Source of the DNA: Kiritimatiellia bacterium
GTDB taxonomy: Bacteria; Verrucomicrobiota; Kiritimatiellia; RFP12; UBA1067
DNA length: 64,000 nucleotides
NCBI GenBank assembly: GCA_045535455.1
Contig: JAZSLQ010000125.1
Coordinates: 1,894-65,893 of the forward strand
Direction: 5' to 3'
Shown here: in pieces, positions 14,519-15,268 of the stretch
Layout of the letters: each line of letters starts with the position of its first letter
Numbering within the stretch: the first letter of the stretch is position 1
The notes under the pieces: generated by a model
Databases searched by the model: none
Told to the model about the DNA's origin: nothing
The model's input: the letters and a program-made list of their open reading frames with translations, nothing else
Translations under genes and position numbers: made by a program

Positions 14519-15268
14519 ATGTGCAGGGTAATGGGCATCGTCAACGTCACGCCGGACTCGTTTTCCGACGGCGGGAAGTTCAACACCCCGGAGGAGGCGA
14601 TCCGCCGCGCCAAGAACCTTGTCGAGGAAGGCGCGGCAATCATCGACATCGGCGGCGAATCGACGCGCCCTGGCGCTACGCCTATATCGTGGGAAGAGGA
14701 GTGGGCGAGAATTGAGCCCGTCCTCGCGGGGTTAAACTCTCAACTCTCAACTCTCAACTTTCAACTCTCGGTAGACACCTATCATCCCGAAACGGCTGAA
14801 CGCGCCGTCGCGGCTGGCGCGACAATCGTCAACTGCGTCTATCCAGGGCCAGTTGAGGCGATGCTTGAAATCCTCGCGTCAAATTCCAGCGTCGAGCTCG
14901 TCATTCCCTCGAAGCTGATCGACTCCAAACTCTCAACTCTCAACTCTCAACTCTCAACTTTCAGCTCTCGCCTCTATCTCGACCCGATGATCGGGTTTGG
15001 GACAACGCGTGAGGAGGATCTTGAGATTCTCCAGACTATCCCAGAGCTTGCAAAGAAGGGGCGCGTTCTCATTGGTGCGAGCCGCAAGCGCATCGTCAAG
15101 CGGCTTACTGGCGAGAAGGTTCCCGGCAAGGATCTCGCGGGCAATCTCACGATTGCGCTGTGGGCCGCGATAAATGGCGCGAGCGTCGTCAGGGTTCACG
15201 ACGTGCGCGAAACTGTGCAGGCGCTAAAGGTGCTTGCCGCGCTTAAGGGAGAGGCGTTGCCGGAATGA
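14519..15268 (+). CDS. folP: dihydropteroate synthase, carrying two in-frame heptamer-repeat insertions
   Basis: GIVNVTPDSFSDGG, DIGGESTRPG, DTYHPE and DPMIGFG are DHPS motifs. They are interrupted by the low-complexity segments NSQLSTLNFQLS and KLSTLNSQLSTFSS. Confidence 0.85.
   Translation: MCRVMGIVNVTPDSFSDGGKFNTPEEAIRRAKNLVEEGAAIIDIGGESTRPGATPISWEEEWARIEPVLAGLNSQLSTLNFQLSVDTYHPETAERAVAAGATIVNCVYPGPVEAMLEILASNSSVELVIPSKLIDSKLSTLNSQLSTFSSRLYLDPMIGFGTTREEDLEILQTIPELAKKGRVLIGASRKRIVKRLTGEKVPGKDLAGNLTIALWAAINGASVVRVHDVRETVQALKVLAALKGEALPE
14735..14769 (+). repeat. heptanucleotide tandem array, five copies of AACTCTC (reverse complement GAGAGTT), inside folP
   Basis: aactctc aactctc aactctc aactttc aactctc is read in frame as NSQLSTLNFQLS. 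Confidence 0.9.
14928..14969 (+). repeat. heptanucleotide tandem array, six copies of AACTCTC, second copy inside folP
   Basis: aactctc repeated four times, then aactttc and agctctc. The 3' end is identical to that of the first array. Confidence 0.9.

Follow-up and report, generated by a model that had tools for sequence, protein, structure and literature searches.

Tandem heptamer families of cyanobacteria (STRR), described by Mazel et al. in 1990, are said to be dispersed through the genome and mainly intergenic, and the small dispersed repeats of Nostoc, described by Elhai et al. in 2008, are reportedly nested in existing repeats or palindromes. In Geobacter metallireducens, 49 elements of four heptamers each are found both within and between genes (Aklujkar et al. 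2009, PMC2700814). In bacteria, heptamer SSRs are found in excess, and arrays of about four units are preferred (Rehm et al. 2015, PMC4692102). The GGGNATC heptamers of Xanthomonas and Nostoc are likewise dispersed, some of them overlap stop codons, and their preference for four units has been attributed to G4 formation (PMC4692102). Rickettsia palindromic elements (RPE) are selfish and occur in frame in unrelated housekeeping genes at positions compatible with the fold (PMC10969869), and heptamer tracts are described as being used for phase variation at the hmw promoters of H. influenzae (PMC8262952). Here we analyse a 64-kb stretch of DNA (hereafter the window, meaning the whole of this stretch) in which two heptamer arrays lie inside folP. 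We consider it probable that these are translated members of a dispersed heptamer-repeat family of this Kiritimatiellae lineage, retained as partly domesticated filler.

Heptamer arrays in folP and its product

The gene and the two arrays are as follows.
14519..15268, forward strand: folP, dihydropteroate synthase, 249 aa (open reading frame and Pfam Pterin_bind)
14735-14769, forward strand: array 1, site S1 (TRF period 7, 5.0 copies, 92% matches; consensus AACTCTC)
14928-14969, forward strand: array 2, site S2 (TRF period 7, 6.0 copies, 91% matches; consensus AACTCTC)

A five-unit and a six-unit array of AACTCTC/AACTTTC had been noted here in a sequence-only reading, and both are recovered by TRF and by direct reading of the sequence. 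Array 1 consists of three AACTCTC units followed by AACTTTC and AACTCTC, and array 2 of four AACTCTC units followed by AACTTTC and AGCTCTC, with departures from a perfect repeat at 1 of 35 and 2 of 42 positions, respectively. Both are in frame in the dihydropteroate synthase (DHPS) open reading frame and encode the peptides that were given for them, NSQLSTLNFQLS for array 1 (N73-S84, the array starting at codon 73) and KLSTLNSQLSTFSS for array 2 (K137-S150). They are direct repeats in the same orientation, as was said. As to the distance of 190 nt given for them, the gap from array 1 to array 2 is 158 nt, the starts as called are 193 nt apart, and the matching blocks are offset by exactly 200 nt. 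The identical 3′ end common to the two arrays is confirmed and extends further than was proposed, positions 14735-14770 and 14935-14970 being identical at 35 of 36 nt. When AACTYTCAACTYTC is searched with at most 1 mismatch, the 64-kb window gives 16 matches against 0.09 expected, a number reached in 0 of 100 shuffles. It may be noted that AACTYTC in the sense direction is free of stops in all three frames and is read as the heptad L-S-T-L-N-S-Q, with Leu at 1 and 4, for which the AF2 model predicts helix and loop. Its complement carries TGA in all three frames within 21 nt; therefore, only the AACTYTC orientation can survive in a gene. The folP arrays are direct repeats, lack self-complementarity and show no structure when folded as RNA (MFE -5.3 and -0.2 kcal/mol, z close to 0). 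An 18-nt repeat at 12833-12916 has no connection with the heptamer arrays; it represents the RGG/GYG tail of an RRM protein.

The folP product matches Pfam Pterin_bind (PF00809) at 2.7e-53 and solved DHPS structures in the PDB at 8.6e-46 for the best of them. An AlphaFold (AF2) model built from a 60-sequence alignment has a mean pLDDT of 91.5, and Foldseek aligns it to DHPS crystal structures with TMq of 0.77-0.86 among the 50 chains listed. The substrate-binding residues (DSF of loop 1, ST of loop 2, D86, N105, D155, K190, R225 and H227) are unchanged in the 60 sequences. dN/dS was computed outside the variable segments against six relatives, and in the conserved blocks it is 0.04-0.05 against 5 of the 6 and 0.14 against L131, at dS of 0.30-0.95. 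On these grounds folP is intact, functional and under strong purifying selection. It lies, with almost zero intergenic DNA, between a thioredoxin-like gene upstream, whose C-terminal tail forms a third repeat hot spot, and a YkuD-type transpeptidase gene downstream. The enzyme comes from a compact DHPS clade (motifs INCVY and LDPMIGFGTTREED) whose members have a short alpha5 or none. The stretch between the arrays (14770..14927, forward strand) corresponds to beta3 to beta5, and its alpha4 part is found as several divergent haplotypes which are shuffled relative to the S1 type.

In the AF2 model, helix 58-75 makes its last turn within array 1, which also takes in the loop (76-81) and the start of strand 82-86. 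The array covers the alpha2-beta3 connection and abuts the invariant Ser of SVDT. Array 2 contains a helix (139-147) in the place of alpha5, ahead of strand 152-155. The pLDDT of the two blocks (residues 73-84 and 137-150) is 80-88. The arrays would in this way supply structural elements (helix, loop and start of a strand), with array 2 a modelled substitute for alpha5. Compared with DHPS of known crystal structure the array-1 region is 3-4 residues longer, and compared with canonical DHPS the region with array 2 is ~16 residues shorter. For the DNA, five protein anchors were placed in 70 alleles (the window and 69 related loci whose DNA we compared with it) and the nucleotide distances between the anchors were measured. 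From GGESTRP to SVDT (S1) the window measures 117 nt, where the shortest relatives, which are free of repeats, measure 99-105. From INCV to LDPxIGF (S2) it measures 153 nt, most other alleles having 132-138 and the lowest value being 111. The net gain per array is ~4-7 residues (~4-6 for array 1).

These lengths, the alignment and the AF2 model show that the arrays have overwritten native hypervariable sequence and are not simple insertions. The idea that the segments are insertions in folP is thus upheld in that they are lineage-specific repeats at the DNA level, and fails in that native sequence was replaced and not cleanly interrupted. In the ortholog comparison the array peptides are missing from unrelated DHPS and also from more distant members of the same clade, as had been expected of such segments. 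S1 and S2 map to the barrel face remote from the active site, or to an outer helix. Near the 3′ end of each array the shared AACTTTC unit encodes a Phe that in both cases shortly precedes a beta strand; for its presence in both arrays, parallel selection at the protein level is as good an explanation as common descent. Sulfonamide resistance can be conferred by small duplications in folP. We considered and rejected this role for the arrays, because S1 and S2 are on the helix-to-strand side and at alpha5, at a distance from the pABA pocket and from loops 1 and 2.

The two sites in related alleles

The best 120 proteins (81-100% identity) have a nearly invariant core, with hypervariable S1, alpha4 helix and S2. 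At S1 and S2 the relatives carry heptamer arrays of the AACTYTC family, fresh or decayed; octamer arrays of CTTTCAAC/TCTTCAAC; 1-3 copies of a 13-nt palindrome, GGGG(A/T)C(T/A)GTCCCC, read as GSVP or GTVP; or a 55-nt GC-rich element with a Y-shaped fold (z -6.3). The octamer, palindrome and 55-nt elements are seen at S1, while S2 has decayed heptamers or 21-nt GGGGTCTGTCCCC units. More distant lineages have other heptamers (AACCCTC, ATCACTY) and another octamer, GAATCGAC. In L141 the 55-nt structured element is nested inside a copy of the 13-nt palindrome, and in L002 the octamers CTTTCAAC/TCTTCAAC are present in S1 of folP as well as in an intergenic array. The 13-nt palindrome and the 55-nt element are both absent from the 64-kb window; therefore, the different repeat types belong to different lineages. 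Also, in L156 the related units TAAAGTG/GAAAGTT adjoin folP. Among 8.7-kb loci of relatives the 13-nt palindromes fall within folP in 4 of 4 cases in L166, 4 of 4 in L145 and 3 of 3 in L140, and this enrichment of repeats in folP over its flanks, found in several relatives, is not obviously explained by tolerance alone. A derivation of the heptamer from the palindrome core (GACTGTC against AACTCTC) was also tried. The start of array 1 coincides with the palindrome centre of the relatives, but the right-hand flank does not fit, and the likeness is suggestive only.

Repeat-free S1/S2 is seen only at 67% identity or below, in L152 and in alleles still further away, L161 for example. In close relatives these sites are always taken by another repeat, and an empty site at high identity was not found among the related alleles. 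The variants appear to be exchanged between alleles. L131 has an array 1 identical to that of the window and is nearly identical to it through array 1, after which it is 30% divergent. In L129 the mismatch pattern against the window is reversed relative to L131, and the mismatch profiles of both place recombination breakpoints next to array 1. The S1 types are found with all alpha4/S2 haplotypes.

A unit of seven nucleotides, not being a multiple of three, inside an open reading frame would make folP a phase-variable contingency locus if slipped-strand mispairing by one unit switched or altered DHPS, which was one of the possibilities first raised for the arrays. Slippage is physically possible in arrays this close to perfect, and the heptamer tracts described at the hmw promoters of H. 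influenzae (PMC8262952) offer a precedent. But all 70 alleles keep one reading frame across S1 and S2, including three which the anchors missed at first. The S1 region is 54 nt in 11 of 11 heptamer-type alleles, and their S2 is 78, 81 or 84 nt, i.e. differs by whole codons only. Copy-number variants of ±1 or ±3 units are missing among the heptamer-type alleles, and the 30 closest protein alleles all have 249 aa. Moreover, the host is a housekeeping enzyme (dN/dS ~0.04) and not a dispensable or variable gene, arrays of 5-6 units are short for an efficient switch, and related alleles have non-repetitive or palindromic sequence at the same sites. With the frame open in every allele, array length constant and purifying selection strong, the slippage reading is not sustained, and we regard a phase-variable folP as highly improbable. 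Deletion between the two direct arrays was likewise rejected: with the 200-nt offset it would cause a frameshift, and the interval is present in 70 of 70 alleles.

The same alleles bear on whether the peptides themselves were selected for a new property of DHPS, e.g. stability or an interaction surface. Array 2 gives a predicted helix where many relatives have only a Pro-rich loop, and the hydrophobic pattern is conserved among heptamer-type alleles. Yet alleles which are otherwise nearly identical carry unrelated S1/S2 sequences in all combinations, from which we argue that the content matters little, and synonymous positions are identical as well, which shows that it is as DNA that the repeat is maintained. 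We therefore give an adaptive innovation of the protein very little credence. As to an assembly or sequencing artefact, short repeats can mis-assemble, and one apparent gene split elsewhere (P0286, see below) is a scaffold gap; however, dozens of independent ENA, JGI and NCBI assemblies contain these arrays, with point differences, and the frame is kept in all of them, which makes an artefact scarcely conceivable.

Related repeats in the window and in other phyla

The search for further GARAGTT arrays that had been recommended gave related arrays elsewhere in the 64-kb window. With an octamer array they are as follows.
5641..5679, forward strand: intergenic array of the related unit TAAAGTG, whose first TAA terminates a SIS-domain gene (5039..5647)
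37884..37928, forward strand: octamer array CACTCCNC, in frame in an SNF2-family helicase gene (36602..39139)
54534..54621, forward strand: two heptamer arrays in inverted orientation (arms of GAAAGTT and AACTTTM type around a 14-nt loop), within a DUF5107/TPR gene (52138..56127) and in frame with it
54918..55004, forward strand: second inverted heptamer-array hairpin, in frame in the same DUF5107/TPR gene

The window has seven heptamer arrays of related units (2 in folP, 4 in the DUF5107/TPR gene and 1 intergenic), which share the form [AC]ACT[CT]T[ACT], and 6 of the 7 are inside genes and in frame; this census covers 64 kb of the genome, which is a small sample for a genome-wide claim. The octamer of the SNF2 helicase has a different unit and is the same phenomenon. 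The hairpins fold as RNA at -25.2 kcal/mol (54534..54621, z -3.07) and -25.5 kcal/mol (54918..55004, z -3.43). Both sites are hypervariable in homologs, and the insert at 54534..54621 is absent from two distant DUF5107/TPR homologs. At the 54918..55004 site, L210 has a hairpin of a different heptamer, TGCCAAT/ATTGGCA, in which a stop codon splits the gene. An apparent splitting of the DUF5107/TPR gene in close relatives was considered and dropped, the split in P0286 being a scaffold gap and a real stop being found only in the L210 hairpin. The variant units in the hairpins, GAAAGTG in the left arms and AACTTTC in the right arms, are exactly those which remove an in-frame TGA or TAA, and are therefore direct evidence of selection for an open frame.

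A different possibility is that these G-free, C/U-rich tracts act as functional nucleic acid, either in the mRNA (possible roles being Rho loading, translation speed or sites for RNA-binding proteins) or as a protein-binding DNA array. The folP arrays are unstructured as RNA, and between the window and L007 they differ at 9 of 39 positions, i.e. are better conserved than synonymous sites (pS 0.54). Regulatory roles were also proposed by the authors of the Geobacter heptamer study (PMC2700814). Against this, S1/S2 of relatives hold GC-rich hairpin palindromes or structured elements, so that no property of the RNA or DNA is conserved from allele to allele, and constraint on the encoded hydrophobic pattern (L/F at i, i+4 and i+7) accounts for the conservation of the arrays just as well. 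Also, Rfam gave zero matches at the repeats, both in the window at gathering thresholds and in three relatives at E<=1. The arrays may have an effect at the RNA level, but a dedicated nucleic-acid function appears very unlikely.

Beyond this lineage, species-representative genomes were scanned for three-and-a-half units of AACTYTC, which gave at least 120 loci. The matches listed come from Bacteroidota, Verrucomicrobiota, Planctomycetota, Cyanobacteria, Acidobacteriota, Chloroflexota, Patescibacteria and others, and include isolates. Of 132 arrays parsed, 22 are well inside long open frames. Five hosts were confirmed by Pfam, namely CarA (Bacteroides salyersiae DSM 18765), Fmt, GlnRS, a RumA-like methyltransferase and PriA, and a P-type ATPase, Mfd and UvrA were recognised by eye. 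In the 844 kb of these loci we counted 273 arrays of period 7 (median length 5.4 units) against 0-7 for each of the periods 5, 6 and 8-11, and in 43 cases neighbouring arrays of one unit form an inverted pair (in 28 with a gap below 160 nt), although these loci were picked for containing an AACTYTC repeat and are biased, not being a fair sample of genomes. The figures agree with the published heptamer excess and ~4-unit preference (PMC4692102) and with the in-gene elements of Geobacter (PMC2700814). A search with a 42-aa heptad peptide was uninformative, as it returned only spurious ORFs of 50-74 aa over long arrays.

The family and its wide distribution raise the question of an active miniature mobile element, in which the array unit or the inverted-array hairpin would be moved by a dedicated trans-acting enzyme targeting particular sequences, for instance repeats or palindromes already in place. 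Five repeat classes are found at the same two sites in different alleles, the 55-nt element sits inside a palindrome copy in L141, and units co-vary within genomes, as with the octamers of L002. The two folP arrays are nearly identical, an essential gene requires entry in one step, and the excess of period 7 with its many inverted same-unit pairs extends over many phyla. L001 has a Y1 transposase gene. As in RPE, the repeats lie in frame in unrelated ORFs (folP, DUF5107/TPR and SNF2 here; CarA, Fmt, GlnRS and PriA elsewhere). However, the folP arrays have no terminal inverted repeats, and no target-site duplication is seen in their flanks (GCGGGGTT|...|GGTAGAC for array 1 and GACTCCA|...|GCCTCTA for array 2), which speaks against the defined element that the common 3′ end had been taken to indicate. 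A transposase was not seen in the window regions checked, including the low-GC region at 17-22 kb, and a filled/empty pair of high identity was not found. Unit sequences differ between loci of one genome, unlike those of classical MITE families, and, as the mosaic alleles show, transposition is not needed for site variants to spread, since homologous recombination can do this. On balance we consider an active mobile element unlikely, though by no means negligible.

We also entertain, as a quite unlikely explanation, a dedicated process that writes tandem blocks of 7 nt (sometimes 8 nt) and about five units in one step, often as inverted pairs, in many phyla. If this were true, the family would be defined by architecture and not by sequence, and the process would explain the common period and length of arrays with unrelated units, the presence of arrays in essential genes without frameshift intermediates, and the repeated rewriting of the same permissive sites.

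Proposed origin of the folP arrays and comparison with known repeats

Returning to the arrays as translated, partly domesticated members of a lineage-specific heptamer family, we note that no other segments of this compact DHPS are as little constrained as the two in which they lie. Each would have entered as a block and not unit by unit, because steps of one unit in an essential gene are frameshifts; this part of the account is argued from logic. The simplest source of such a block would be ectopic recombination or template switching from another, already existing array. Selection keeps the frame open and the array length fixed, and length-neutral homogenisation within each array would keep it nearly perfect. 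The arrays would be tolerated as filler with neither a switching nor a regulatory role, in a genome which has very little non-coding DNA for repeats. In L001/L130 and L007 arrays are present at the same length but are decayed and more GC-rich (period-7 score 0.41-0.46), and the arrays predate the split from L007 (dS 0.95) and from L001 (dS 0.44). All but at most one of the 26 third-codon positions match a perfect array. The chance of such uniformity is ~1e-3 by a rough calculation which assumes ~0.3 substitutions per synonymous site in the lineage of the window, and from this we infer length-neutral homogenisation in the array or its re-installation. Two adjacent CGACTTT units in L129 fit unit-to-unit conversion.

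If read in this manner, the locus tells us that a repeat with a non-triplet unit can sit stably inside an essential enzyme, even as the substitute for a helix of a TIM barrel, because the heptamer yields the same benign heptad peptide in whichever frame it is read. The relatives provide a natural experiment, i.e. dozens of alleles with a near-identical core and different cassettes at two fixed sites, and this allele set could be used to measure the real sequence freedom of the S1 and S2 parts of DHPS.

Of the known systems, SSR contingency loci resemble the folP arrays in being tandem repeats inside an ORF with a unit that is not a multiple of three. They differ in that folP is an essential, conserved enzyme whose 70 alleles have neither length polymorphism nor an out-of-frame state. 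RPE are palindromic, ~150 bp long and conserved in sequence and peptide (PMC10969869), whereas the folP arrays are tandem repeats of 35-42 nt without inverted termini. The features found here, a 7-nt unit in short arrays at several related loci within and between genes, are those of dispersed heptamer families, and the arrays belong to this known but poorly understood class. The Geobacter elements are likewise short, dispersed tandem arrays of a 7-nt unit in ~4 copies; their unit, GGACCGG, is GC-rich, they occur in another phylum, and a role as regulatory RNA was proposed for them, in a report that does not include turnover of repeat classes at fixed sites or substitution of structural elements of an enzyme (PMC2700814). 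The cyanobacterial STRR are mainly intergenic, as against 6 of the 7 window arrays which lie inside genes and are coding. Like some GGGNATC repeats (PMC4692102), the TAAAGTG array of the window supplies a stop codon. The G4 explanation given for GGGNATC cannot apply to the G-free AACTYTC arrays, and as the preference for 4-6 units is present in these G-free repeats, quadruplex formation cannot be the general explanation. With the folP arrays and their relatives, the unexplained heptamer excess of bacteria extends to a further phylum, in a case that is for the most part intragenic.

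Heptamer arrays across phyla

We collected 120 loci from many phyla (L009-L128), each picked for having one AACTYTC array, and in these AACTYTC-selected loci the period-7 tandem arrays number 273, as against 0-7 each for periods 5, 6 and 8-11. The median length of these period-7 arrays is 5.4 units, and many of them form inverted pairs of the same unit separated by gaps of 7-160 nt. As many as 9 arrays of unrelated units occur per 8 kb in four of the loci (L116, L059, L072 and L079). Loci of unrelated bacteria (L027, L042, L108, L013, L096, L009, L012 and L015) carry AACTYTC arrays some 4.4 units long that are in frame with the genes for CarA, Fmt, GlnRS, a RumA-like methyltransferase, PriA, a P-type ATPase, Mfd and UvrA, usually positioned in linkers or directly before a beta strand.

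Repeats and palindromic elements in the window and at folP loci

Arrays, hairpins and a GC-rich element found in the window and at the folP-bearing loci include the following.

Window 5641-5679: TAAAGTG array, intergenic
Window 37884-37928: roughly 5.6 tandem units of the octamer CACTCCNC, in the reading frame of an SNF2-family helicase
Window 54534-54621 and 54918-55004: two inverted heptamer-array hairpins, in frame in the DUF5107/TPR gene
L002 546-583: GGGGAAC heptamer array, inside a sigma-54 activator gene
L002 8448-8508: octamer array, intergenic
L005 807-861 region, also L008, L132, L134 and L141: 55-nt GC-rich element GGTAGGGACGCC...CGCCCCTACC, in frame at the first folP array site (S1)

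Both hairpins of the DUF5107/TPR gene run from a GAAAGTT-type arm through a short loop to an AACTTTM-type arm, their left arms have 34 identical bases in common, and the unit variants seen are exactly those that abolish TGA or TAA codons in the reading frame. The homologous gene of a related species (L210 3930-4070, GCA_045659385.1) holds, at the site of the second hairpin, a hairpin of another heptamer, TGCCAAT/ATTGGCA, within which lies a TGA stop codon; gene calling splits this gene into ORFs of 777 and 381 aa. The helicase octamer array translates to SLPHSSTPPLPHSSTHLPS and is placed between the GLGKT motif and LIVCP. The SIS-domain gene 5039..5647 terminates at the first TAA of the TAAAGTG array (5645-5647), and 50 nt separate this stop codon from the start of the next gene. 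An 18-nt tandem repeat at 12833-12916 is ordinary: it corresponds to the RGG/GYG tail of the RRM-type RNA-binding protein encoded by ORF 12494..12940.

At S1 of the L002 folP there is also an octamer array, and its unit variants are matched by those of the intergenic octamer array of the same genome (CTTTCAAC/TCTTCAAC). Folded as DNA (-22.5 kcal/mol, z -6.3), the 55-nt element takes the form of a Y-shaped double hairpin. It gave no Rfam match, and in L141 it is nested in a copy of a 13-nt palindrome, GGGG(A/T)C(T/A)GTCCCC. One to three copies of this palindrome are present at both folP sites among the relatives L140, L145, L146, L149, L153, L155, L156, L159 and L166, where it is translated as GSVP/GTVP or RGLSP. 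Any one of these genomes has a single variant (TCT or ACT), and the 8-kb flanks have almost no copies of the palindrome.

Base composition and RNA genes of the window

The stretch 16700-23000 has a GC content of 0.49-0.53 compared with about 0.60 elsewhere, and may have been acquired horizontally. Its coding content consists of very large proteins, one of 1423 aa and the next, just downstream, of 1274 aa, for which Pfam gave no match. The RNA genes are listed below.

Window 44881-45035 and 46278-46351: three tRNA genes
Window 45791-46236: bacterial RNase P RNA class A, 163 bits

The RNase P RNA spans 446 nt against the 367 positions of the class A model, and therefore probably contains expansion segments.
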